In this document: piece after piece, positions 5,518 to 43,701 of the stretch
Layout: each line of letters opens with the position of its first letter
Numbering within the stretch: position 1 is the stretch's first letter
IMG/VR virus record: IMGVR_UViG_3300013105_000003
Span: 1-64,000 of that record
Reading direction: 5' to 3' (one strand)
DNA length: 64,000 bases
DNA from: a virus
Lineage: Duplodnaviria > Caudoviricetes
Program-made: the position numbers and the translations under genes
The notes under the pieces: model-generated
What the model saw: only the letters and a program-made list of their open reading frames with translations
Told to the model about the DNA's origin: nothing
Databases searched by the model: none

Positions 5518-5940
5518 GTGAATAAGATTAGTAAGCAAGACTTTGAGGATTTCTACCGTAATGGTAGGGAGCTTGCCTATGTGCAGAACCTGGCAAGTGA
5601 TGACTACGACCAGAAGATATATCTAGAGAAGCCAACAGATAAAGAGGAAGCTAATCTAGTTACTAGCTTGGTGAAGATTAATTCTGGTTTATTCGGAAGC
5701 TCAGACTATATCATGCATCGACCTGTGCTAGACTTAGATATTCCACACAGTCTCATTGAGTCGTCAACCAAGGGTCATAGTCATCTATACTTGGATATTG
5801 ACCTAACATGGTCTGACTATGAAAGGCTCCTAATAGTACTTTGTGACCTAGGAATAATTCAAGAAGGATTCTATGATTCGGCAGTACGGAACATGGCATC
5901 CGCAGTACGTCTACCTTGGGTAAAGAAGAAGTCTAACTAG
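5518..5940 (+). CDS. hypothetical protein
   Basis: ORF with conserved-looking HRPVLDLD..SSTKGHSHLY segment. Confidence 0.65.
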   Translation: MNKISKQDFEDFYRNGRELAYVQNLASDDYDQKIYLEKPTDKEEANLVTSLVKINSGLFGSSDYIMHRPVLDLDIPHSLIESSTKGHSHLYLDIDLTWSDYERLLIVLCDLGIIQEGFYDSAVRNMASAVRLPWVKKKSN

Positions 5941-5962
5941 TTAAAATTACGAAAGAAGTATA

Positions 5963-7009
5963 GTGACAAAACAAGCACTAGCACTTGAGTACCGACCACG
6001 TACCTTTGAGCAGGTAGTAGGTCAGCACACTGTTGTTCCTGTATTACGTGCTTTTGCTAAAAAGAAGACACCACCACCTTTGATGGTATTCTCTGGTCCA
6101 GCAGGTACAGGTAAGACCTCTATGGCTAGGATTCTTGGGGCTGCCCTTAACTGCTCTAACCCAGCACCTGACGGTGATGCTTGTGGAGAGTGCTCACAGT
6201 GTCTCTCCGTGCAAGGCAACTTCTCTATGTCCTACATGGAGTACGATTCAGCTACTAATGGTAAAGTGGCTGATGTACAAAATGTACGAGAAGTTGTCTT
6301 GCACAAGCATGAAGATAACTTTAGAGTCATTGTGTTTGATGAGGCTCACGCTATTACTACCGCTGCATTCAATAGCCTTCTTAAGATATTTGAAGAGCCT
6401 CCTATTAACACAATATTCATTCTAGTGACTACTGATCCTCAGCAGATTCCTAGGACTATCCAGAGCCGTGCTCTGTCTTTTGATTTCAGAATCATACCTA
6501 TTGGTGAGGTTGCTAAGCGTCTACTTTCTATCTCTTCGGAACTTAACTTCCAGGCAGAGCCAACTCTCCTAGCGAAGATTGCCTACTATTCAAAGGGCCA
6601 TATCCGTGACGCTATTATGGAACTGGATAAGTGTTACCGGGTAGGCATGACTTCTGCTAAGGAGTACGATGAGATTACTTTTACAGGTGACTTTTCTAAG
6701 GATATCCTCTACGCAGCTGTTCACAAGGATCACAAAGCACTCTATGAGTCTGTAGAGAATTTCTTTAAGTACTCCTCTGACCTTAAGGAGTTCACCTCAC
6801 AGTTTGTCGATTCTCTCATTGCATTGTCTAAGGCTCTGGTTGGTTTACAAGCTGATGAGCGTACTATGGAGTTGTCTCGTAACATCTCTAAAGATCAAAT
6901 TATGAAGTGTTACGAACTAGTATGGAATATGCAAGATAGAGGGTCTGCTGTTAAGAATCCAAAGTCACAGGCGCATCTATTTACAGAGGTTCTACTCCAG
7001 GTATTGTGA
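5963..7009 (+). CDS. dnaX: DNA polymerase III gamma/tau-like clamp-loader ATPase
   Basis: ALEYRPRTFEQVVGQ, GPAGTGKT, Zn cluster C..CGECSQC, DEAH, AFNSLLKIFEEPP, TIQSR. Confidence 0.92.
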   Translation: MTKQALALEYRPRTFEQVVGQHTVVPVLRAFAKKKTPPPLMVFSGPAGTGKTSMARILGAALNCSNPAPDGDACGECSQCLSVQGNFSMSYMEYDSATNGKVADVQNVREVVLHKHEDNFRVIVFDEAHAITTAAFNSLLKIFEEPPINTIFILVTTDPQQIPRTIQSRALSFDFRIIPIGEVAKRLLSISSELNFQAEPTLLAKIAYYSKGHIRDAIMELDKCYRVGMTSAKEYDEITFTGDFSKDILYAAVHKDHKALYESVENFFKYSSDLKEFTSQFVDSLIALSKALVGLQADERTMELSRNISKDQIMKCYELVWNMQDRGSAVKNPKSQAHLFTEVLLQVL

Positions 7010-7013
7010 AATC

Positions 7014-7021
7014 ACGATAAT
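7014..7021 (+). promoter_or_regulatory. phage late-promoter motif ACGATAAT
   Basis: recurrent intergenic octamer, upstream of terminase genes. Confidence 0.75.
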
Positions 7022-7055
7022 GTGGTATACATATGTCCTAAGGTAAGGAACCACA

Positions 7056-7526
7056 TTGACTGACGACACACTAAATAAGGTAACAGAACTTACCTTTAAT
7101 ACTGGTAAGGAAGTCTCTGTAGGTCAAGAAAAACTTCTAGATTCAACAGGACTAACACCTGCTTTTCAGACAGCACGACAGGATTTATTTCAGTCATTAG
7201 TGTCAGAGAGACCAGACTACGATGTAACTCAGCTTGCTTACATGGAGCGTATATCATATCTACAGGCTCGCATTAAGCAGAAGGAAGCCACTGGTGGGTA
7301 CAGCTCTGAGCAGAATTACACAATGGCTAACAGAACATTGCTTGATACGTTGGCGGCACTCCGTAAGGCTGACTTAGAACGAGAAGACAGAACTAAGTTC
7401 CAGCGTGACTTTATGGAGACAGTAGCCAAGGCTGTCCAGTATGCTACCAAGGATCTTGATGAAGATTCTCAGGATAGAGTGAAGTTCCTCCTTAGCCGTA
7501 AGTTTGAGGAGTTGCTTGGTGGTTAA
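7056..7526 (+). CDS. putative terminase small subunit
   Basis: helical 156-aa ORF directly upstream of and overlapping TerL. Confidence 0.5.
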   Translation: MTDDTLNKVTELTFNTGKEVSVGQEKLLDSTGLTPAFQTARQDLFQSLVSERPDYDVTQLAYMERISYLQARIKQKEATGGYSSEQNYTMANRTLLDTLAALRKADLEREDRTKFQRDFMETVAKAVQYATKDLDEDSQDRVKFLLSRKFEELLGG

Positions 7527-12321: not shown

Positions 12322-12329
12322 ACGATAAT
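12322..12329 (+). promoter_or_regulatory. phage late-promoter motif ACGATAAT
   Basis: intergenic copy of the recurrent octamer. Confidence 0.7.
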
Positions 12330-19211: not shown

Positions 19212-19220
19212 AGCACATCT

Positions 19221-19266
19221 AAAGTATGCTTACCCATATTCACGATAATATGGGTAAGCATACTTT
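19221..19266 (+). repeat. 20-bp perfect inverted repeat with ACGATAAT (19242-19249) at its apex; terminator plus promoter
   Basis: AAAGTATGCTTACCCATATT-CACGAT-AATATGGGTAAGCATACTTT. Confidence 0.85.
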
Positions 19267-19290
19267 ATTTTACCTAGAAACGGAGTTACC

Positions 19291-24192: not shown

Positions 24193-24677
24193 AGCAAGAC
24201 AAGACAGGCAGTTTTACTGCAGTCATTGACTTGTTAGCTAGTGAATATGGTTGGTCACAAAAAAGAATATTGAACACAACTATTGCTAATCTCTCTAAGA
24301 TGGTAGATAACATTAAAGAGAGGCAAAGGGTGAGGCTAAAGCAAACTATTGTAATCCAAGAGTGGGCAGCCAAGCACATAGCAGGAGTTGTAGCTGGTTC
24401 CGTAGAGGATAAAGGCGGAAAGTTCCAGAAGGCCGTATCCAAACAGAGATTTCCTTGGAAAGAGTTTGGATTCCCAGAAATGGTCAATGAAGACGATGAC
24501 TATGATGACGAAGACGACACTGAGTACTTTACACCCAAGCCTCCACCACCATATCGAGAAGAAGGTGAAGATCCATCCTTTGACTACATTCTAGGTGACG
24601 GAAACATGAAGGGCGCTATGCGAGACAACAAGGGTGTTGGAGATATGAGGTTGGCTGTAAGCAAACTAGCACGATAA
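24117..24677 (+). CDS. tail assembly chaperone frameshift extension (GT)
   Basis: open -1 frame; LASEYGWS typical of the T part. Confidence 0.8.
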   Translation, partial: GKTTEDHVRGSEQDGPDREHLRHQVKQDKTGSFTAVIDLLASEYGWSQKRILNTTIANLSKMVDNIKERQRVRLKQTIVIQEWAAKHIAGVVAGSVEDKGGKFQKAVSKQRFPWKEFGFPEMVNEDDDYDDEDDTEYFTPKPPPPYREEGEDPSFDYILGDGNMKGAMRDNKGVGDMRLAVSKLAR

Positions 24678-30700: not shown

Positions 30701-33628
30701 GTTGGCGGTGGAGGCGGGAGCTGGGGTCTAGGTGTTACTACCAAGGGAGCTAGTGTTCCTTACCGTCCCGGTATGCATTCTGCCCTAGTACGGTATGGTA
30801 AGACTCTACGCTCTCGTGGTATGTCAATTCTTGAAAACCCAGCTTTCGGTGCTGTCCATCCAGTACACATGGGAGGTTCACTTCACTACGTAGGTGAAGC
30901 AATGGACGTTTCAGGTGGTCCCGGTTGGCCTGGTAGTGGTAACAAGGTTTACTCTGAGGCACTAGCTAAGGGCTTTGCAGCAATCTGGAAGTCCGCAGGA
31001 CACTACGATCACGTTCACATTGACACAGGTCTTTACAAGGAATACAACAACAAGACCTCAATGATTGGTTCAAATTACTCAATTGGTACAGGTGAGCTAG
31101 GCTCCTCAGACGAAGGTAACTGGTTTACTAACACATTCTCTTCATTGAAGGATCTTCTTGGTGGACTTAACCCAATCAGTAAGTTGAAGAGTGGTATCAG
31201 TGCTGTAAAATCTGTTGCTGATAACTCAGGTATTGGTAAGCTTCTTGGTAAGCTAGCAGCTGCCCCACTAAACCTAGCAGTGTCTGCTCTTAAGAGTGCT
31301 TTCTTTGGGTCAGACTCTTACGAAGGTGCTGACGTTAATAACCCAGCAGGAGCAGAGTCAGTAGCTAGATGGTCACCTACTGTCAAGAAGGCTCTAAAGA
31401 TGCTAGGCATCCCACAGAAGCCTGAGTATGTAAAAAACTGGCTCACTCAGATTGGTTGGGAATCCTCAGGTAACCCAAGTGCTATTCAGGGTGATATTGG
31501 AGATATTAACAACCGTACAGGTCAGCTCGCTCGTGGTCTAGTACAGGTTGTGCCCGGTACCTTCAAGGCTTATCACCTAAAGGGCCACGACAACATCTTC
31601 AGTGCTCTTGACAACTTGCTTGCAGGTATGCGCTACGCTAAGTCTGTATATGGGCTAAGTGGATTCTCTAACTTCATCGGTAAGGGTAGCAAGCACGGAT
31701 ACTCTGAGGGTGGATTCACTGGCAGTGGTTACAAGTATGAGCCAGCTGGAGTCGTTCACCGTGGCGAGGTTGTGTGGTCACAGCAGGACGTAGCTGCTCA
31801 CGGCGGTGCTCATAAGGTTGATTCCATGCGTAAGCACCGTGGCAGTAAGGTTGCCGGGTACGCTACTGGTGGTATTGTTGCTCCTCCAGATGGTAAGGCT
31901 ATTAGAGGAATTCAGCCTGGCCTACACATGATGGCATGGAAGATGATTCGTCAGCTCTTCCACCTACCAACTGTTCGTGGTATGAAGTCACCTTGGGCAG
32001 ATGGTTGGGACAGCTCAGTTACTAAGGCATTCACCAAGGCCAACTACACTGTTCCAGACCTGTCTACAATTACTAAGGCACTTGATGTTTCTAAGTACCT
32101 ATCTCCAGTTGTCAACATGTTCCGACACACTCAGTCACGTCTTCCCGGTAAGACCGGAATGGAACGCTACGCTACAGTAGGACCAACAAACTACAAGCAG
32201 CACCCTTCACTCACTCGCGCCGTACAGAAGGTCATTGGCATTAAGGATGATGGTGTATGGGGTAGTAAGATGAGTAAGTCATACATGCAGTGGCGTGCAG
32301 ACAAGGGACTACCCAGCAGATCACACGGTAGAAGTCACAACTATGTAACTACTCCTGACTGGAAGTGGCTAGCTGAAGAGCGTTACCCAAGTTCTTATGG
32401 AGCTAAGAATCGTTACACAGATAAGAACTACAAGGGTGTCCGCCTAGAGGATATTGCCAATAAGTACGGCATCTCCATGTGGCAAGCTGCTGCACTGTTC
32501 CAAGGTAAGAACAAGGATTACATCAGCAAGCACACTCTTAAGGCAACTAGTCACCTAGCTCAGTTTGATGCTGACCAGATGAGTGGCTCTACTTCATGGC
32601 TAAATGGTAATATGATCAAGTCTTACCAAGCCATGTTCGGTGTACACCAAGACGGTACGTGGGCTACTGGTATGGCTGACTGGTCTACCTATGCAATGCG
32701 TAAGCAAATGGGTAAGAAGACAGATTCTATCTTCCCTCCTTGGTGGTCACTAGACCCACTACAGAAGGCTATTGAGGACCAGAATAAGAACAACGCTGAC
32801 CAGAAGGAATTCCTCAAGGATCTAGATATCCTGTCAGGGTGGGGCTTTGGTAACCTTGTAGACAAGCTGCAAAGTGATGGCCCAACAGATGGTCTACCAG
32901 TAGCTAGAATTGCTGTCAAGAACCAAGCACTCGCAAAGCAATACGATGACCAGCTAAAGGAACAAGCAAGTCTTGATTCTACAGGAACCGAGGACTTTAC
33001 TAAGTTCGTTGCTACTGTAATGGCTCCCGGTGTCCAGATGGGAATTCGTAGTATTGCCCAAACTCTTGGCATTGCAGACTTCGCTGTAGTAGATATGTAT
33101 GATAAACTAATAAAGAGTGGAAGACTAAAGAAGGGTGAGCGTACTGCTCGTCTCGATAAGGAAACTACTCAGTTTAAGAGTGGTTTGTTCTACGCTGCTA
33201 CAGGTGGTCGTGTGCCAGGTACTGGGACTGGTGATACTGTTCCAGCAATGCTAACACCCGGTGAGTTTGTACTGAAGAAGGCAGCAGTTAAGGCAATCGG
33301 TATGGAGAACCTTTACAACCTCAATAACATGCAGAAGTTTGCTACTGGTGGTCAGGTTTACTCCTTTAACGATTCCAGTAGAGGATTTGGTACTAGAATG
33401 CCTGACTTCACTGGTGTTAACATCTTCTCTAAGCGTCTACTTAAGGGAGACACTACTACAAGTGATCGTAAGACCCTTGATGACGACAAGAAGGTTGTTT
33501 ACAACTACACCACTATCAATAATCCAAAGGCTGAGAAGTCTACTGCAGATATCAACAGACTACTACGTAAGAAGGCAGCCCTTGGTTTCATGGCCGTTGC
33601 CGCAGACACGACAAAGGTGAACAACTAA
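24740..33628 (+). CDS. tape measure protein with C-terminal peptidoglycan-hydrolase domains
   Basis: 2962 aa Ala-rich helical; IHSPSKV; Trp-periodic region; HxxGxAxD/HxDHVH peptidase-like; ESSGNP..GLVQ lytic transglycosylase. Confidence 0.92.
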   Translation: MTDREISWKAVADFSSLIAQSKAAQKSLKDLKDEQHNLATSFDEDSKRITTASKDQNKSIDDTVKSYREASKASKDSADGAVRDSKRKGDSYKAEANVLENIKRAHRELDVAEKKRADMGQRLFTIQNALAAASQDVADATERKTKATNDSGRASRDAIKAEQNLISARRSQQRISSAGAQAESDRTKAIKEAAAEEQKAALAEKALETARTASARATREIEAAQLRSTRARRDDVSTTSGAVAATRSVTGATRESTAATRDETAELVRNSNTKKTFLQFLQNIQSAQHGYKGTIESVTAAQTSHARALSRSLAASRELEKAESDLNNARRTMASSEAAVADGEARVGEARTILSHATEDVNKAEAELTAVRASAGAGSREAVQAEQNLNAARSSYTRISSTVSSIDRDIAVARNEGARANQVIESSEARINNARQRSQLTGAALVRATTRLNGEMNASQSIVKQVGNAFSSLSSIFSGMSSGFKDLMGMFGRMALILLPQLLPLVGALAGGFVQLTSSFVPMVGLLGALPGMLLGAVTGFAALKGAFGGVSKALKAYSTEQAKAGVDGTKAANAAKKNAKAIADAQRAVSDAKKNAAQANKDASQKVVKAEADAADANKSAAADVKQAEADKIKAFKDAASRVADAVQSAKDSVASANANVIESEKNLISAQADSKKAQQALNDVRKDAIRELEDMQKAARDASFSERDATLNLIDARNALAKVKEDPTASDSEVAKAQLQYDEAQARLSDAEQAKKDAVAANAEAQSKGITGTKAYTNAQDAAAAAAEKVAQAQQALVKSQQEQTRAVQDAAKSIAKAEADAADQRKSATKSVADAQKKQAKTQKDGIASIVAARQAQAKTEAQGAESIRKAQESVATAMENAAEATRAASSSANAYQAALNKLSPSQRQFVQFLIGLKPKLDQLKETAAKNMLPGVEAGIRGAMPLFPAFNRSVGNTAKAFGDASSSIGKTLGSGEGFGAMKRVFKANDDAVKEAAGSSGHYTIALVRIMDAARPLVKWIGHLVATFGNYLDNATKVNKENGHLSGFFDSAKSSAATFGYIVKNLGGIIWGLFKAAKGTGDELNSNFNKHLKDMNEQVNSQDGQKKLKKWFEDIKPVVQATGRVFTNLARGIGSLTGGKNDKQGKGLKNLADMLNGLANGVGPDSPLIKFFGKLNESGAQKQTFDAIGGLFKSITDFGASKGGQTVLATMATELGLVADALGKIMSNQVGAAILTSLMVAAATIKVAKFIGASTGISSVAGMAKNAAAKRKAQGKRSWTNRATGGRIGRGGSGGTGSVAGDVASTEAQAESAGAAVSRGMEAGINSNSAEVLRSIDLMTDGIISHIRTNLEIHSPSKVTTRLGEDTALGFINGLQGENKQASTAAESLETATLKSLSDADSKMRLKGEEAGRAYSQGLKSTSSSAMVSPGVVAGGKAAKPKSGPMPPVATPRGNRGMAVRGAIGSAGGAAMMGSMFLPGKAGEIAGQAGMLAMMISMLPKLETVTKTIKAITSALKLQTVAQKLGAVAAKIYAAGQWLVNIAMEANPIGLIIIGLIALGVAFYVLWKKSETFRDIVTGAWNAIKAAAVAVFDWFKKIGSTIFDALKTAAESVFGWLKKNWKLILAILTAPFGGMVVYLTIKFWPQIIGFLNKLWGWVKGAFKKLWSGVKAVFMAPFDAAKALINQFTDSKSGVRKILTAVWNWVSGTFRKLWSGLKSVLLAPLDLAKTLINQIFDSKSGFRHILSSVWSWVTGTFRKTWSGLKSLITSPITDAKNAISTLLGKGKGGLQTVFTKALDGIKTIWNGLQSIALKPINFMRTKVFKGLADAYNWVVDKIPGAGSLKINTKASQFQPLKLAQGGRVHGNSPTPVADNVPAMLTAGEWVQPVSTVKHYGSGVMEALRKRQIPKEALSRFASGGIAEGREASVLTANKRKKRLLTAHLRDGGMAGSSGYSLGSMGGAATLSNYYDSTAVGHEHATGSGAKVGGGGGSWGLGVTTKGASVPYRPGMHSALVRYGKTLRSRGMSILENPAFGAVHPVHMGGSLHYVGEAMDVSGGPGWPGSGNKVYSEALAKGFAAIWKSAGHYDHVHIDTGLYKEYNNKTSMIGSNYSIGTGELGSSDEGNWFTNTFSSLKDLLGGLNPISKLKSGISAVKSVADNSGIGKLLGKLAAAPLNLAVSALKSAFFGSDSYEGADVNNPAGAESVARWSPTVKKALKMLGIPQKPEYVKNWLTQIGWESSGNPSAIQGDIGDINNRTGQLARGLVQVVPGTFKAYHLKGHDNIFSALDNLLAGMRYAKSVYGLSGFSNFIGKGSKHGYSEGGFTGSGYKYEPAGVVHRGEVVWSQQDVAAHGGAHKVDSMRKHRGSKVAGYATGGIVAPPDGKAIRGIQPGLHMMAWKMIRQLFHLPTVRGMKSPWADGWDSSVTKAFTKANYTVPDLSTITKALDVSKYLSPVVNMFRHTQSRLPGKTGMERYATVGPTNYKQHPSLTRAVQKVIGIKDDGVWGSKMSKSYMQWRADKGLPSRSHGRSHNYVTTPDWKWLAEERYPSSYGAKNRYTDKNYKGVRLEDIANKYGISMWQAAALFQGKNKDYISKHTLKATSHLAQFDADQMSGSTSWLNGNMIKSYQAMFGVHQDGTWATGMADWSTYAMRKQMGKKTDSIFPPWWSLDPLQKAIEDQNKNNADQKEFLKDLDILSGWGFGNLVDKLQSDGPTDGLPVARIAVKNQALAKQYDDQLKEQASLDSTGTEDFTKFVATVMAPGVQMGIRSIAQTLGIADFAVVDMYDKLIKSGRLKKGERTARLDKETTQFKSGLFYAATGGRVPGTGTGDTVPAMLTPGEFVLKKAAVKAIGMENLYNLNNMQKFATGGQVYSFNDSSRGFGTRMPDFTGVNIFSKRLLKGDTTTSDRKTLDDDKKVVYNYTTINNPKAEKSTADINRLLRKKAALGFMAVAADTTKVNN

Positions 33629-36287: not shown

Positions 36288-36295
36288 ACGATAAT
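36288..36295 (+). promoter_or_regulatory. phage late-promoter motif ACGATAAT
   Basis: upstream of tail-tip gene. Confidence 0.75.
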
Positions 36296-36341: not shown

Positions 36342-39300
36342 ATGAAGTACCTAGAGTTTTCACTTGTCGCATCCGGCAGAATCTTATTCAATGCTTTCTC
36401 TAAGCAATTTGACATTCAGGATGACTTCTCCCCCTCAACTTTGTCATTTAGTCTAGACCGTACTGATGCTGCTAACACAGACTTCTCAGGTGCTTTTGTA
36501 AAGGTAAAGGTTGACGGAGTTCAACTAAAGTCATATTACATTATTAATGGAAACTCAGTAGACTATGTAACCAGTGATGGTATACCTGCCAGGGCGTACT
36601 CAGCTTCTTCTATTCATAGTGAATTTGAAGACTCCCCAGTAGTCCCTTCCGCTTGGCCTAATCCAGTTCCATCAGGCCACGACTTCCAGAATGCCACTCC
36701 TGGAACTATTATCAAAACTCTAGTGACCAGAGTGCAGCAACTTGGATACCTTCAGAATATTGATACTTCGACTTTCACCGGAACACATGACTCTAATGGT
36801 GTGACGTGGCCTTCTATGATGGATAGAAGTTACACTACAGGTGATACAATTCTATCTGTTATCCAAGGTCTCTACACTGATGGTATGTGTGACCCCGAAA
36901 TGGATGGTTATTCTCTTAACGTATACGTTGCAGGTGGTCTAGATAAGACACTAACTCCAGATAAGGTTGTCTTTAGAGTAGGACAGAACCTTACTGAAGG
37001 CTCTACTACCACAGATGCTTCTGATTTCTACACTGATATCTTTGCTATTGGTGACGGTAGTGCAGCAGTTATGAAAACTCGACCAGCTTCTTACAACGTT
37101 CTTGGTCGTAGAAGAATGAGGTTTGCTCAGTACGCTGGTATTACTGACGTTAACCTTCTTGGTGTTCTTGCTGACCTAGAACTAGATCAGTATAATCACA
37201 TTAAGACAGAGCGTTCTTGTTCTGTCTCCCCAGACTTCTACACACCTTTTGTTGACTATAACATTCACAACTTAGTACCTTTTGATAAGGGTGACGGTTC
37301 TCTAGAGAATATTAGAATCAAGCAAATTTCTGTCACTCAGAGTGACGAGGATGGGTCTTTCTCAGTTGGTATTACTCTAGGTGATATCCTTGAAGATGCT
37401 GACCAGAAACTGAAGCGCAGACTAGACGCTATCACAGGTGCAAATGCTGGTGGTGGAGCAGTACCTAGTGATAAAACTGATGACAAGATGCCACCTGCAC
37501 CTCCTGTCTCTATTAGTTTTACAACTACACCATACCTTGACGACCAGACACGTAGAAAAGTTCTGGCTATAATTAACTGGCCCCCAGTTACAACTAATGC
37601 TGATGGTACCCCAGCAGCAGACATTGACCACTATGAAATTCAGTCGAAGGTAGGAAATGCTGCAGATTTTGGTCCCGTATCCACTGTCCCTACTGCACAA
37701 GCTGTAGTGTCTGGATATGACCCTAGTACAAAGCTACAGGTTAAAGTTAGAACTATAGACACTTCAGGACTAGCTTCAACTTGGACTACCTCTAGTGTCT
37801 ACACCATGATTGACAACACACCTTCTACCCTAAAAACTCCATCTACTCCAACAGTTACCGCCAAGTACCAAAACCTAACTATTACTTGGGATGGTAAGGA
37901 TAATCTAGGAAATTTCCCAACTTTAGATTGTGTTGCTATAGAGGTCCACTTAGCTACAAGTTCGGCTACCTTCACTCCTACCTCCGCTACCAGAATTGGT
38001 GTAATTTCCTATATCACTTCTGGTGTAGGTGGATTTACTACGGTAACTAATTTACTTCCTACCACGACTTACTATGTCCGTTTTATAGCTCTTGGTAAGA
38101 ATGGAACTGTCTCACCAGCATCTACCTCAGGAAGTGCTACTACTGAAGCACTCATCGTTGACCCAGCGGTTATTACTCAGATCAACACTGACGTAACCAA
38201 TACCAAAAATACTGTTGCTCAGAACGTCACTGACCTGAATCAAGCCAAGACTGACCTGTACAGTCCTGGTGGGACAGTTGACCTGGTGAAGACCACGCTT
38301 ACGGGTCAGATCACGTCGGGTGACACAGCTACTCTGAATGCTGCTAAGTCAGATGCTCAGGCCAAGGCAGACGCAGCGAAGCTGGCAGCAACTACCGCAG
38401 CTGCTGCCGACGCACAGACGAAAGCCAACGCGGCTCAACAAGCTGCTGTGACTGCGGCCACCACCGCAGCTGCTGCGGATGCTCAGGCCAAGGCTGATGC
38501 TGCTACCGCAGCTGCTACAGCAGCCGCCGCAGCTGATGCGAAGACTAAAGCTGACGCTGCCCAATCTGCTGCTACAGCAGCCGCTAAGACGTATGCAGAC
38601 GCTCAGGTATCCGGTGCAAGCACCACGACACTCGCTACCGCTGCTGCTGATGCTCAGGCCAAGGCAGACGCAGCGAAGCTGGCAGCAACCACCGCAGCTG
38701 CCCTGGATGCTCAGGCCAAAGCTGACGCTGCTAAGTCAGCTGCAACTACAACGGCTGCTGCTGATGCTACGACAAAAGCGAACAACGCTAAGCAAGCTGC
38801 TATTGATGCCGCCGCGCTCGACGCCACAGCGAAGGCCAATCAGGTTGCAGCAGAGGCTCAGTCTCGTGGCCCGGACCTAGTAACCAACGGTACTGGGTAC
38901 TTGGGAACGAACCGGAATTTCACATCTTCTCTAACATTTACAGCAGCTGATGCCCCTCCTGGTATGCCCGGTGCATTTATTCGTACTTCTGGCTCGTATG
39001 CTTCCATCTTCTCCGATGACTATATTCCAGTAGACCCTACTCGAAAGTATGTCCTGAGTGCATGGGCACGTGAGACAGCAAGCACCGGAGTTTCTAGGTT
39101 TTACTCTGGATTTACTGCGTATGATTCACAGAATACAGCTATTCAACCACTGCACTACTGGTACGAGCCAACCACCAGTACGACTATTGCAGCCTCCCTG
39201 AAACCTGGAGATACAACGGCTACCGTTGTCAGTGGTGCCGGGTGGGTAGCTAGTGCCTCCCAGTTCCTTCTAGCTTGGAACTACACAGATACTGCTGGTC

Positions 39301-42197
39301 GTGTATGGCCTATCGGTACCTACTCACGGTGGACTGGAAACATCGCATCAGTATCTGGGAACACCATTACGCTATCTACAGCTTGGACAGGTCCAACTCT
39401 TCCTGTAGGTCACCCTGTAGTTAACTCACACAACGGAGGAAACTATGTCTACTGTGTTGCGTCTAACGCAACAGTACCCACAGTCTGGACAAAGTTCACG
39501 TCCCCCGTCATCACTGGAACCACAGATGGCAGCAAGGGTTATGCAACTGTAAACTTTCCTCCAGGTACAGCAAAGATCAAGTTCCTATTCTTGTCTCAGT
39601 ACACAGGATCAGCTGCTGACTGTCGTCAGGCATATAGCGGAATTTCCATGTCGGAGGCAGGTGCTGCACAAGCTACTGCCGATGCTGCACAGACAACTGC
39701 GTCCGGTAAGAACACTATTTCTTGGTACACCACCGCTGCACCTGCACTGGCACCAGGCACTCAGTCTGGTGATATCTGGAACCAGTACGTCATCCGCACA
39801 GCTGCCTACATAGCAGCACAGCACCCTGAGTGGACCGCTGCACAGAAGGCCGCAGCTGCCGACAACCGTATGGCTATTCTGGCCTCTTGGCAGTCAGATG
39901 GGACTAACTGGAAATCCTCTGCACTGTCCGAGACGTATCTTCCACAGGTCAACATCGGAGTAGGTACTTACGGTGAGCTGGACGGTATCCGGCTTAAGGC
40001 AACCTCTGTCCAAGCTGACGTTGTGGTGGTGAAGGGTTCTGTTGACGATACTGTCATTAAAGATGGTGCAGTTACCACAGATAAGATATTTGCAGGTGCA
40101 GTTACTGCTGGTAAAGTAAGTGCCAATGCTATCACTGCTGACAAGATTGATGCTACTTCTTTAATTGCTAGTAATGTTAGTGCACAGAACATAGCCGCAA
40201 ACCTAGGCACGTTCATGCAGATTAAGGCCAATAATATCTTGGCTGGTAATATTAATGTGGCATTGACATTTACTGCTGGTGGTAAGGGTATCTTCGGTGA
40301 TCCAAACGGAGTTAACACCACTATTGACGGTACTGACGGGTCGGTTCGGACCAACAAACTTGACCCAGATGGAAATATTTACCCTTCTACCATGCTGGGT
40401 GGGGCTGGTAAGGACTTGCTGCAAATTGGTAATGATACTAACCCATCAGCAGCAGCGATTACATCTAACGGTGACATTACTGCAAACACTGTCGCTTCTG
40501 TAGGAGATATGAGTGTTGGTGGTATGCCCCTGATTGGTTCTAGAGTTTCTCCTGGAACGGTCATCAGGACCAACTACTTCCCCACATCACAAGATTTTGA
40601 AAACGGGATGGTGGCTCCCACCTACACCGGGAGTTGCACGGCAGCTATATCAACCGCGTTCGTGCACTCTGGCACGAGTTCTTGCGCTATCACTGCAACA
40701 GCCACCGCAACGGGCGCTCAAGCTTTCTGGACTGGTACAACCGGTACTACAATGGGCGTAAGCACGGGAGACACCGTGACGCTCTCCGCGTGGATGTACA
40801 TTCCCTCAACAGTCACCCAGAACGCCAACAACGCCATAAAGCTGACGGGTGGTGCGTTCGCTGCTACAGCGGGCGTCAACCCTAACTGGACTCTGCGAAA
40901 CCAGTGGCAGCGGGTATCTGTCACTGCTACTGTCACCACTGTCACTGGTAACATCTACCCGACTCTATGTGCGCCTGCAACTAATGGGCAAGTTATCTAC
41001 TTTGACGACGTGCAGCTAGAGGTCGGTAGCGTTGCTACTGACGCTTTCAGTGTGAATAGCCAGTCGCTCGGATACAGCTACATGTTCCTTCCCAGTACGT
41101 GGATAGCTTTGGAATATACTCCAGCGGCTCCCCTTGGGTACAGCGACACGTTGTCTTGGGGTTGTGTAGCAAGAGCACCTTTCGCTTCCATAGTCCAAGG
41201 CAAAACCATCACAGCCGGTGGAAGCATCTCCCCCATCGGGCAGTTCTCAGTGGCTCTGGACCCGTGGCGCAGCTACCAGCTGGTGATGCACTGGCGTGGC
41301 TACACAGGCACTACAGGGTCGTACAGCAACGTCACGACCCGGTTCTACATGACCAACGCGACAGACCCCAACGGTGAGGCACCCGACCCCACAACGGCAG
41401 GAGTCGCTCTAGGTCAGCAATCAGAAAACTTTGTTGGTAATACTGCCACTGGACTTGATGATCAGCTGACCATCAACTTCACAACTGACGATCCTTCTGG
41501 TGTTGGTGCGAAGGTGCAGTACAAATTCTTGCTTGGAATTTTTGCAAACGGTAACACCTTCACACCGGACACTGTAAACGTTCCTACCCAAGATAACTGG
41601 GTAGTTACTATCTTCGATACTGGTAGGGTTCCGTGGCCCTCCCCAGTCACTGTTCCTGGTGCTGGTACTAAGCGTACTTACATATCTACCTGGAATGCTG
41701 ATAACTCTAGGTCGTGGGGCGCTAACGGAAGTGTATACACAATTAGTGGTAGTACTACTGGTTACATTAGACAGGGTGTTACTAATGGTGTGCAGTACTA
41801 TGGTGCAGTCTCATTTGGTGGGAAGGCAGTCAGTGGAGAAACCACTAAGACAATTGCACAGGCTGTTCCTAGTGGTGCACTCATTCAGAAGGCCGAAGTG
41901 TTTATGCACATCAACTGGTCCGCAGATGACACTGGGCAGATCAAGATGCGCCCACTTGGTGCCAATGCTGTTCCTTCTACTATGGCAACTCCGACTGGTG
42001 CTAGTCCTGTCATTTACAACTTCAACTCACATAGTGCCGGTGCATGGATTCAAGTTCCCACGTCTTGGTTCACTACGACCAACAACGGTGTCATTATCGC
42101 TACCCCAGACTGGCTCTTCAACAACAGTCAGTTTGCTGGAGCTGCGCACCCAACAGCTTCTTGGCGACCACAGGTTAGACTCACATACACCCGATAA
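36342..42197 (+). CDS. tail tip/Tal-central fibre protein (FN3 domains, coiled coil, CBM-like modules)
   Basis: 1951 aa after Dit; FN3-like segments, Ala-rich repeats, AVTADKI repeats, C-terminal RPQVRLTY. Confidence 0.82.
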   Translation: MKYLEFSLVASGRILFNAFSKQFDIQDDFSPSTLSFSLDRTDAANTDFSGAFVKVKVDGVQLKSYYIINGNSVDYVTSDGIPARAYSASSIHSEFEDSPVVPSAWPNPVPSGHDFQNATPGTIIKTLVTRVQQLGYLQNIDTSTFTGTHDSNGVTWPSMMDRSYTTGDTILSVIQGLYTDGMCDPEMDGYSLNVYVAGGLDKTLTPDKVVFRVGQNLTEGSTTTDASDFYTDIFAIGDGSAAVMKTRPASYNVLGRRRMRFAQYAGITDVNLLGVLADLELDQYNHIKTERSCSVSPDFYTPFVDYNIHNLVPFDKGDGSLENIRIKQISVTQSDEDGSFSVGITLGDILEDADQKLKRRLDAITGANAGGGAVPSDKTDDKMPPAPPVSISFTTTPYLDDQTRRKVLAIINWPPVTTNADGTPAADIDHYEIQSKVGNAADFGPVSTVPTAQAVVSGYDPSTKLQVKVRTIDTSGLASTWTTSSVYTMIDNTPSTLKTPSTPTVTAKYQNLTITWDGKDNLGNFPTLDCVAIEVHLATSSATFTPTSATRIGVISYITSGVGGFTTVTNLLPTTTYYVRFIALGKNGTVSPASTSGSATTEALIVDPAVITQINTDVTNTKNTVAQNVTDLNQAKTDLYSPGGTVDLVKTTLTGQITSGDTATLNAAKSDAQAKADAAKLAATTAAAADAQTKANAAQQAAVTAATTAAAADAQAKADAATAAATAAAAADAKTKADAAQSAATAAAKTYADAQVSGASTTTLATAAADAQAKADAAKLAATTAAALDAQAKADAAKSAATTTAAADATTKANNAKQAAIDAAALDATAKANQVAAEAQSRGPDLVTNGTGYLGTNRNFTSSLTFTAADAPPGMPGAFIRTSGSYASIFSDDYIPVDPTRKYVLSAWARETASTGVSRFYSGFTAYDSQNTAIQPLHYWYEPTTSTTIAASLKPGDTTATVVSGAGWVASASQFLLAWNYTDTAGRVWPIGTYSRWTGNIASVSGNTITLSTAWTGPTLPVGHPVVNSHNGGNYVYCVASNATVPTVWTKFTSPVITGTTDGSKGYATVNFPPGTAKIKFLFLSQYTGSAADCRQAYSGISMSEAGAAQATADAAQTTASGKNTISWYTTAAPALAPGTQSGDIWNQYVIRTAAYIAAQHPEWTAAQKAAAADNRMAILASWQSDGTNWKSSALSETYLPQVNIGVGTYGELDGIRLKATSVQADVVVVKGSVDDTVIKDGAVTTDKIFAGAVTAGKVSANAITADKIDATSLIASNVSAQNIAANLGTFMQIKANNILAGNINVALTFTAGGKGIFGDPNGVNTTIDGTDGSVRTNKLDPDGNIYPSTMLGGAGKDLLQIGNDTNPSAAAITSNGDITANTVASVGDMSVGGMPLIGSRVSPGTVIRTNYFPTSQDFENGMVAPTYTGSCTAAISTAFVHSGTSSCAITATATATGAQAFWTGTTGTTMGVSTGDTVTLSAWMYIPSTVTQNANNAIKLTGGAFAATAGVNPNWTLRNQWQRVSVTATVTTVTGNIYPTLCAPATNGQVIYFDDVQLEVGSVATDAFSVNSQSLGYSYMFLPSTWIALEYTPAAPLGYSDTLSWGCVARAPFASIVQGKTITAGGSISPIGQFSVALDPWRSYQLVMHWRGYTGTTGSYSNVTTRFYMTNATDPNGEAPDPTTAGVALGQQSENFVGNTATGLDDQLTINFTTDDPSGVGAKVQYKFLLGIFANGNTFTPDTVNVPTQDNWVVTIFDTGRVPWPSPVTVPGAGTKRTYISTWNADNSRSWGANGSVYTISGSTTGYIRQGVTNGVQYYGAVSFGGKAVSGETTKTIAQAVPSGALIQKAEVFMHINWSADDTGQIKMRPLGANAVPSTMATPTGASPVIYNFNSHSAGAWIQVPTSWFTTTNNGVIIATPDWLFNNSQFAGAAHPTASWRPQVRLTYTR
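38340..38870 (+). repeat. about eight DAxxKAxxA Ala-rich repeats (~19-aa period) in tail-tip protein
   Basis: 41-nt identical duplication at 38352 and 38649. Confidence 0.8.
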
Positions 42198-42215
42198 CAG
42201 AGAGGTAAATCTAGA

Positions 42216-42428
42216 ATGGCTGCAGACCTACCCGCAGACCCTACGAAGTTCACCAACGATGAGATGTCTGCGATGAGAGACGCAATGTCTCAAGAGACAG
42301 ACAGACGTGCTCAGCTGGCTTCCGCACCACAGACTGCCGTAACTGCGTGCTGGCAATATCAAGCTGCTGGTGGAGACCCCAACGACATACTCGAAGCTGT
42401 GCAGGATTGGATTAGTAAACGAGCATAA
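42216..42428 (+). CDS. small hypothetical protein (possible fibre chaperone)
   Basis: GAGG SD, 70 aa, directly after tail-tip gene. Confidence 0.65.
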   Translation: MAADLPADPTKFTNDEMSAMRDAMSQETDRRAQLASAPQTAVTACWQYQAAGGDPNDILEAVQDWISKRA

Positions 42429-42465
42429 CGGTCTACAAACCTTAAAGTAATAGTAAAGAGTAAAA

Positions 42466-42530
42466 CACGACACTCCCAAAACAACGATAATATATGAGTA
42501 AATCATTTGTCTTTTGGGAGTGTTGTCGTG
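42466..42530 (+). promoter_or_regulatory. RBS-occluding hairpin with ACGATAAT (42484-42491) in its loop
   Basis: ACACTCCCAAAA/TTTTGGGAGTGT 12-bp stem covers the GGGAG SD; extension covers GTG 42528. Confidence 0.7.
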
Positions 42531-43121
42531 GCTAATTTGAGAAAACTTTGGGGTCGTGTCAGTCCTCACAAGCGTCTAATGAAGCTATTCGACTGGTTAG
42601 GCCCAAGAGGCACTTTACTACTTCTTTGCGGATTTATCTGGATTCAGACTGGTGTTGGTACATTACAAGGATACAGCGGTGCTCCAGATGATGCACCTCA
42701 CCTTCTAATACCAGCAACTATCAGGGGGTCTTTGTGGATCATATCTGGTATAGTAGCAATTGTTCTATGCCCTACTCGTAGTATTAAATATCACAGAGTA
42801 GCTATCACTGTCCTACCATTAATGCCACTTGTGAGATTAATCTCATACTTATTTTCTTGGATGTGTTCATGGAGTTTATTCAACTTTGCATTTCCTTCAT
42901 TTCCATTGGACGGGTCAGCTAGGGCTGAGTATCAGAGTACCTTCTGGCAAGCTGACTTACTTCTTGTAGTTGCTCTTATGCTTGCACCAGCTACATGGAA
43001 AATGATTAGTAACTACCTATCACAAGAGCAGTTGGGGGATTACGACAGGACTGTTAAAGTAGTGTCAGAGGAGAGTGAAGAAGCCTCTTCAGGGGATGAG
43101 AGAAGTGGTGAGGTCCGTTGA
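42528..43121 (+). CDS. multi-pass membrane protein (possible lysis accessory/holin)
   Basis: about four hydrophobic segments; GGGAG before GTG 42528. Confidence 0.7.
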   Translation: MANLRKLWGRVSPHKRLMKLFDWLGPRGTLLLLCGFIWIQTGVGTLQGYSGAPDDAPHLLIPATIRGSLWIISGIVAIVLCPTRSIKYHRVAITVLPLMPLVRLISYLFSWMCSWSLFNFAFPSFPLDGSARAEYQSTFWQADLLLVVALMLAPATWKMISNYLSQEQLGDYDRTVKVVSEESEEASSGDERSGEVR

Positions 43122-43636
43122 TTACTTCAACTATAGTAAGTGTGGCAATACTTACTTCAACTTCCGCACCAAATGTAGAAAGCTTAGCACAAGGAGATAA
43201 CAAGTGGACTCTTCTTGGCATTGTTATTACTTCCCTAGTAGCTCCTGCAGTTATTCTTCTTATTAATAGCAGAGCACTTAGACCACCTAGCAAGCCCGAC
43301 GAGGAACCTAATATAGTTTCTACTGACAGAGGAACTTCTTTTTCTATAGAAGGAATGTCAACCAACATGGTAGAGGTACTTCTCTCCATGTGGAAGAAAC
43401 TAGATGAGATGGAAGACAATCAGGAATCTTGGTCTGCAGAACGGCAAGAGTTTATTCGTATCAATGAGGAACTTCGCAGACACAATAGAGCACTCGCTGA
43501 GGGTTTTGATGAGGTTATTGACTGGATTGATCGTGGTGCTAAGCCACCACCACCTTCTGTGGCACAGCACGTAAGGGATCTAGTACAAAGAGCTATAGAA
43601 AATGGCACCTTTGACGGGTTAAACTCAGACCATTAA
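43118..43636 (+). CDS. single-TM membrane protein with coiled coil (possible lysis accessory)
   Basis: TM WTLLGIVITSLVAPAVILLI, coiled coil, WIDRGAKPPPP. Confidence 0.7.
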   Translation: MITSTIVSVAILTSTSAPNVESLAQGDNKWTLLGIVITSLVAPAVILLINSRALRPPSKPDEEPNIVSTDRGTSFSIEGMSTNMVEVLLSMWKKLDEMEDNQESWSAERQEFIRINEELRRHNRALAEGFDEVIDWIDRGAKPPPPSVAQHVRDLVQRAIENGTFDGLNSDH

Positions 43637-43701
43637 TATGCTATACTATATAGGTAGCCACTTAACCTGAGTTTGCAGCAAGTCCTCAACTCTGGTATAC
43701 T
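43611..43701 (+). promoter_or_regulatory. tandem sigmaA-type promoters starting the replication block
   Basis: TTGACG-N17-TAATAT (43611-43639) and TTGCAG-N17-TATACT with TGG extension (43673-43701). Confidence 0.65.

Follow-up and report, generated by a model that had tools for sequence, protein, structure and literature searches.

Genes Surrounding the Hairpin

The window, i.e., the whole stretch of DNA analysed, corresponds to the initial 64 kb of a virus record that is 125,231 bp long, carries direct terminal repeats and represents an uncultured, siphovirus-like phage of 125 kb. Around the hairpin described below, every large gene is carried on the + strand. The upstream side is occupied by a tape-measure-like gene (2962 aa), a Dit-like gene (885 aa) and a tail-tip or fibre gene (1951 aa; 36342-42197), and the tail block ends with a 70-aa ORF at 42216-42428 (phrog_7100), to which homologous small ORFs of 62-76 aa are found at the same position in relatives. 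On the downstream side, a gene for a 197-aa membrane protein (42528-43121) of unassigned function, which contains four hydrophobic segments and ends in an acidic tail, is followed by a gene for a 172-aa membrane protein with a TTG start and one strong transmembrane segment (43118-43636). The hairpin lies between the two sides, with its 5' arm at 42465-42481 in the untranslated spacer just upstream of a promoter motif and its 3' arm at 42512-42530, where the SD GGGAG (42516-42520) and the GTG start codon (42528-42530) of the 197-aa gene are located; the 5' arm is thus positioned as anti-SD and anti-start.

Downstream of the membrane-protein pair, the + strand carries a replication block including an SNF2 helicase and a sigma factor. 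Just 3' of the pair, at 43611-43701, two sigma-70-like promoters were noted (TTGACG-17-TAATAT and TTTGCA-18-TATACT with TG), which are candidate starts for the helicase/sigma/replication block in a scan that as a whole was at chance level.

Start Codon and Downstream Membrane Proteins

The stored gene call for the first membrane protein, P0001 (180 aa, ATG at 42579), begins too late, and a start at GTG 42528 gives 197 aa. Six homologues of the 197-aa protein, with 59-78% identity, were compared together with their DNA. All six have ATG, GTG or TTG where GTG 42528 aligns, with a GGAG-like SD upstream of it; the stretch 5' of the stored gene call is conserved at the protein level, in the form of an N-terminal extension. 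Since the relatives keep the start codon, the SD and the N-terminal extension, the start lies within the stem, as the sequence-only reading had assumed in taking this GTG to be the true one. Between the stop of the first gene and the TTG start of the 172-aa gene there is a 4-nt overlap, which is also present in the relatives L003-L007, and the two genes are, therefore, probably translationally coupled.

Searches of Pfam and PHROGs gave no function for either membrane protein, the 197-aa protein being without a Pfam match, and the ESM Atlas returned only unnamed phage clusters for the 197-aa protein and no function for either. A search of the whole genome with eight endolysin-type Pfam families retrieved nothing but an SLT domain, which lies within the 2962-aa tape-measure gene; neither an endolysin gene near the membrane-protein pair nor, among the eight families tried, a stand-alone endolysin was found. 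The toxic or lysis-related role that had been proposed for the pair is a guess. The SLT (lytic transglycosylase) domain within the tape-measure-like protein is located at 31457-31651.

Promoter Motif in the Loop and Phage Sigma Factor

The loop of the hairpin contains the -10-only, sigma-28-type promoter motif ACGATAATAT on the + strand (42484-42493). Its core ACGATAAT occurs in 12 copies in the 64-kb window, all of them on the + strand, versus 0.69 expected. Genome-wide, CGATAAT was located at gene boundaries in about 20 + strand copies, with the consensus aCGATAATAT and two further conserved positions (T-R) 12-13 nt downstream, counted from the C. No -35 element was evident, there being no information content upstream of position -5 in the 20 genome sites selected by CGATAAT; the upstream arm of the hairpin is therefore free to evolve.

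Promoters of the sigma-28 type (FliA/WhiG/SigD) have the consensus TAAA-N15-GCCGATAA, in which GCCGATAA is the -10 box. The -10 box of the phage motif matches the sigma-28 core, with CGATAA being invariant in the 20 sites because these had been selected by CGATAAT, and the base preceding CGATAA is A in 17 of the 20 sites and not C. While the CGATAA core is common to both, the phage motif differs from sigma-28 promoters in being without the -35 TAAA, which lies about 15 nt upstream in the consensus, and in extending 3' as ATAT.

The sigma factor encoded by the phage (45972-46748, +; Pfam Sigma70_r2, 5.5e-17) is FliA/WhiG-like; its best NCBIfam match is TIGR02479 FliA_WhiG at 6.4e-35, with a score of 120.9 bits that is below the family cut-off of 189.6 bits. 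A sigma gene occupies the same position in L002, L003, L017 and L018, and in a phage collection only weak matches to the sigma factor were obtained, in unannotated faecal phage contigs. The FliA/WhiG-like sigma is presumed to be the reader of the ACGATAAT promoters.

All nine AT-rich loci from relatives have the motif 43-51 nt 5' of the homologous gene, even those as distant as 41-47% protein identity, and in L002 the tail-fibre gene is likewise preceded by it. The reading of ACGATAAT as a genuine motif and a candidate phage promoter was supported by its strand specificity, its location at gene boundaries, its conservation in AT-rich relatives and the presence of an encoded FliA/WhiG-like sigma. 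With the motif being enriched, conserved and sigma-28-like, and with a FliA-like sigma encoded, a transcription start near 42498 (+) is a reasonable inference, the position being predicted from the conserved T-R, located 12-13 nt beyond the motif's C, and from the spacing known for sigma-28 promoters. In the tail operon, the same ACGATAAT motif is borne by the closest promoters on the upstream side, 24671 and 36288.

Pairing and Stability of the Hairpin

The arm ACACTCCCAAAA at 42470-42481 has its exact reverse complement TTTTGGGAGTGT at 42512-42523, leaving a 30-nt loop between the 12-bp arms with ACGATAAT at 42484-42491 inside it. The 12-nt perfect complementarity, the GGGAG in the 3' arm and the motif in the loop had all been claimed before, and each string was found at its coordinates. 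The further claim of an extension by CACGACA/TGTCGTG over the GTG needs one correction; CACGACA (42466-42472) overlaps the 12-mer by 3 nt, and the two pairings are, therefore, mutually exclusive. Overall, the helix pairs 42465-42481 with 42512-42529, which can be achieved in two ways. The first is composed of the 12 bp, a 3-nt bulge and 4 bp (CACG/CGTG); the second, which is the minimum-energy fold, has 15 contiguous bp including one G-U (42467-42481 with 42512-42526), followed by a 1-nt bulge and 2 bp involving G42528 and U42529. With its 17 pairs, this fold takes in GGGAG together with two of the three GTG bases, and two small inner helices are formed within the loop.

The 73-nt hairpin was calculated to fold at -26.9 kcal/mol, compared to -11.7 ± 2.6 kcal/mol in shuffled sequences (z -5.8; reached by 0 of 200), and the duplex of the arms at -24.5 kcal/mol, compared to -14.4 ± 2.0 kcal/mol for non-cognate pairs. 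In absolute terms, this stability is ordinary, with 128 genome peaks being equally stable in 80-nt folds, mainly in GC-richer coding DNA. The hairpin is unusual by its position, in a short intergenic spacer and exactly over a ribosome-binding site. Rfam covariance models run against 42000-43000 revealed nothing at E up to 1.

Counting perfect arms of at least 12 bp with loops of at most 60 nt, the 125-kb genome contains 16 inverted repeats versus 0.37 expected from Markov-1 simulations, and most of the others have a terminator build of stem plus T-run. Among the 16, the arm of the 42465 hairpin is the shortest (12 bp) and only one loop exceeds its 30 nt; it is for this reason the weakest and most chance-like on repeat statistics alone. 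Its place at the chance end of this set, together with its ordinary absolute stability, would agree with the inverted repeat being a lineage-specific accident without selected function, such as a 3-nt insertion beside an A-rich spacer opposite a U- and G-rich ribosome site. We consider such an accident unlikely; by a rough estimate, it would need chance placement in the intergenic few percent of the genome, exactly over SD and start and with a promoter in the loop, and the pairing continues both past the 12-mer and into the loop.

It is extremely improbable that the two 12-bp arms constitute a DNA operator, at which a protein bound on both sides of the promoter would repress. A perfect inverted repeat does bracket the -10, and the arm centres are 42 bp apart, i.e., about four helical turns, but the 12-mer was found nowhere else in the 125-kb genome or in the relatives, and the 30-bp gap far exceeds that of dimeric operators. 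The pairing also extends via a G-U wobble, with the + strand RNA at -26.9 kcal/mol being more stable than the - strand at -24.2 kcal/mol, and the conserved SD and start region by itself accounts for the right half-site.

As regards termination, the hairpin departs from an intrinsic terminator in its 30-nt loop and in being without a U-tract, the + strand continuing as GGCTAATTTG, and it is omitted by the terminator scan. The hairpin might nevertheless serve chiefly at the 3' end of the tail-operon message, where it could terminate transcription weakly, stabilise the RNA as a 3' stem or provide an RNase III-type processing site; its overlap with the ribosome-binding site would then be secondary. 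Within the window, no other hairpin is present between the tail genes and the loop promoter, and terminator-then-promoter pairs are common in the genome (16024/16096, 18944/18986, 19220/19242 and ~60860/60882). With ~26 bp in total, interrupted by internal loops, the helix has sufficient length for RNase III, as judged from the known T7 and lambda sites. The loop and the + strand sequence after the stem argue against this role, as the phage's other terminators all have T-runs, and even if it were true, uncleaved RNA would keep the ribosome site locked; the probability that we assign to it is low.

On the minus strand (42440-42465), TTTTACTCTTTAC comes directly after this hairpin and gives it a terminator-like, T-rich tail that is missing on the + strand. 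To the right of the hairpin, neither a minus-strand gene nor an above-chance promoter that would need a minus-strand terminator was observed.

Predicted Opening of the Ribosome-Binding Site in Long and Short Transcripts

The sequence-only reading had held that read-through RNA from the tail operon is silent and that RNA started at the loop promoter is translated. To compare the two transcripts, the opening cost was calculated as the energy for unpairing positions -14 to +3 around the start. It amounted to 16.3 kcal/mol in the RNA derived from upstream and to 5.7 kcal/mol in the loop-promoter RNA; with other flanks, the values were 24.6 and 6.1 kcal/mol, respectively, and none of 120 mononucleotide shuffles of the upstream part reached 24.6 kcal/mol. 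Together with the 200 shuffles of the hairpin, these shuffles stand against a chance origin of the repeat. The difference of 10.6 kcal/mol is the largest among 17 motif-linked genes and is above that of all 36 control genes, for which the maximum was 5.8 kcal/mol. The leader of the promoter-started RNA was calculated to fold at -6.0 kcal/mol (z +1.16), which is less structured than its shuffles. The fold energies, thus, bear out the contrast between the two RNAs, the long one being locked and the short one unusually open, and from them we infer that translation would be blocked on the long RNA.

Such a block presupposes read-through from the tail genes into the hairpin, which may occur; the terminator scan revealed no above-chance terminator between the promoter at 36288 and position 42465. 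The stop codon of the 70-aa ORF lies 36 nt 5' of the first paired base, and ribosomes ending at this ORF should, because of this distance from the stem, not melt the hairpin.

Comparison with Relatives

In the opening-energy test, eight relatives gave p values of 0.03-0.72 (Fisher combined p 0.35), revealing no such lock, and the cognate duplexes between arm and ribosome-binding site in the relatives had unremarkable ranks. In aligned columns, 52.8% of the cells pair, compared to 49.6 ± 2.8% in shuffles, with no covariation. The putative hairpin lock is seen in one genome only and not in the relatives compared, and, since there are relatives without it, it is not essential to this membrane-protein gene family.

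The eight relatives without the repeat count in favour of its accidental origin, as does L003, which has an identical 3' arm and the same promoter but a 5' arm that differs essentially by a CCC indel, the CCC being missing. Against this stands that T4 likewise has relatives that retain gene e while the inhibitory structure over its ribosome site is missing, as listed in one review (PMC3014915, section 29).

At the same junction, relatives have other hairpins in its place. A canonical terminator lies 38 nt 5' of the motif in L018/L019, whereas in L017 the -10 itself forms the 3' arm of a perfect 20-bp hairpin, after which comes a U-rich stretch; L003, L005 and L006 have plain hairpins 5' of the motif. 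That the relatives' hairpins act there on the end of the upstream RNA speaks for such a 3'-end role of the 42465 hairpin as well. The common theme across the relatives is that the membrane-protein gene is insulated from the tail operon by means that vary from phage to phage.

Besides its canonical terminator, the distant relative L018 has a moderate promoter-enclosing helix over a GTG start (ACATCTTTCA/TGAAAGTGT; 5986-6003 with 5932-5941), for which a p value of 0.033 was obtained that is non-significant after eight tests. In L007, at 265-280, the motif is the 3' arm of a short hairpin, ATCGTC-aaac-GACGAT.

Closer relatives were sought in viral contigs by protein and alignment scans and by exact match with the 3' arm, and none was found. 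The exact-match scan with the 3' arm in metagenome contigs returned nine stretches, all unrelated; genome contigs yielded no relative, and in the phage collection neither the region nor the membrane protein was matched at the DNA or protein level.

Proposed Mechanism and Comparison with Known Systems

We consider it somewhat probable that the hairpin is a translational insulator whose effect depends on the position of the transcription start, as in T4 gene e and I-TevI. RNA from the tail genes would carry both arms, and a hairpin of about -25 kcal/mol would form once the 3' arm has been made, burying the SD GGGAG and most of the GTG, so that the 197-aa protein and its coupled 172-aa partner would remain untranslated from the long RNA. 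RNA polymerase with the FliA-like sigma would start at ACGATAAT in the loop, near 42498, and the resulting RNA, being without the 5' arm and having an unusually unstructured 30-nt leader, would be translated. Since the upstream tail operon (promoters at 24671 and 36288) uses the same promoter class, no temporal switch is expected, only separate expression levels; the likely effect would be the uncoupling of the membrane-protein dose from the abundant tail mRNA rather than delayed expression.

For T4 gene e, long early transcripts form an inhibitory structure over the ribosome site, and RNA from late promoters just upstream of the gene is without the 5' part of the structure and is well translated; this scheme is presented as experimentally proven and is shared by I-TevI, I-TevII, I-TevIII, segB, Aeh1 mobE, soc, 39, 25 and 26 (PMC3014915, section 29; PMC2988022, section 12). 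Judged by these sections, the 42465 hairpin resembles gene e in having a putative phage-specific, -10-only late promoter in or beside the 5' strand, so that the promoter's own transcripts would be without that strand and would be translated. A stable helix covering SD and start is present here as well, with an opening cost of 16-25 kcal/mol. Differences are found in the promoter, which here is the sigma-28-type ACGATAAT and in T4 is TATAAATA read by gp55, and in its position, which at 42465 is wholly within the loop. Furthermore, the phage is unrelated to T4, and the long RNAs would share the class of the embedded promoter, whereas in T4 they are of an earlier class.

The mechanism is, therefore, not new, following the same scheme as T4 gene e and I-TevI, and no new kind of mechanism is opened; the 42465 hairpin is a plausible further case of it. 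If it works as proposed, the T4 trick would have arisen also in a lineage of uncultured phages unrelated to T4, whose sigma and promoter are of another type. Promoter, arm and ribosome site would, in addition, form a simple, testable unit for studying the FliA-like late regulon of this phage.

Long, imperfect hairpins between phage operons are also known from the lambda N leader and the T7 intergenic RNase III sites, where they alter translation or stability of neighbouring messages. The 42465 hairpin is likewise long, imperfect and intergenic; those sites differ from it in being without a promoter in the loop, and for the present one cleavage is hypothetical.

Other Hairpins Associated with the Promoter Motif

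The sequence-only reading had grouped the 42465 hairpin with sites at 7014 and 19221 as a recurring design. This was not borne out, with 19221 being an ordinary terminator, 7014 being background and the motif class as a whole not exceeding controls. At 19220-19267 (+), a perfect 21-bp stem precedes TTTT, and the -10 reaches from the loop into the 3' arm. This hairpin leaves the ribosome site of the next gene free (difference in opening cost 0.0 kcal/mol) and acts on termination, not translation. At 7014-7059 (+), a weak 8-bp stem, AATGTGGT/ACCACATT, adjoins the motif and is indistinguishable from background, with an opening difference of 3.5 kcal/mol, a duplex rank of 5 out of 22 and 18.0 start-spanning pairs versus a genome mean of 15.8.

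Start-spanning pairs were not enriched at 18 motif sites compared to genome-wide or shifted controls (p 0.94 and 0.66, respectively), and the opening difference at 17 motif sites did not differ significantly from that of 36 control genes (Mann-Whitney p 0.087). At a threshold of at least 4.7 kcal/mol, picked post hoc, five motif sites with heterogeneous structures stood against one control. Moderate opening effects via dissimilar structures were found at 12323, 66459, 69007 and 86587, which are leads only.

Overlapping terminator-promoter modules were observed at non-homologous places in two phages, namely at 19220-19267 of the window and at 5931-5977 of L017. In both, a U-rich stretch comes after a perfect hairpin of 20-21 bp that has a CGATAAT -10 in its loop and 3' arm; upstream RNA would be terminated there, and the promoter RNA, starting inside the 3' arm, cannot form the terminator. 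They share with the 42465 hairpin a promoter nested in a hairpin that acts only on RNA started upstream. In contrast to the 30-nt loop, missing U-tract and coverage of SD and start codon at 42465, these modules have short loops and U-tracts, end transcription and leave the next ribosome site untouched. A similar build is known from the PeSL promoter-plus-stem-loop cassettes of T4-type phages, in which a promoter is nested in a hairpin with a short loop and a U-tract and transcription is ended.

A broader view would be that -10-only, sigma-28-like promoters spawn a family of nested promoter-in-hairpin modules, since without a -35 the arms evolve freely, and that these modules insulate late units; we regard this as quite unlikely. 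In each module, RNA made from the nested promoter would always escape the hairpin, which would act solely on RNA that was started upstream, by termination at window position 19220 and in L017 and by a translation lock at 42465 and possibly at 69007 and in L018. If true, nested modules would provide a general, evolvable insulation of neighbouring late transcription units.

Past the 64-kb window, at 68990-69043 of the genome (G000), TCTCTCT before the motif complements AGAGAGA beside the SD of the next gene, which makes this site a weaker candidate for a second promoter-enclosing lock (4.7 kcal/mol), with a terminator just upstream. Also past the window, at 66433-66466 (G000), the motif forms the 3' arm of a short hairpin (TATCGTAC...GTACGATA).
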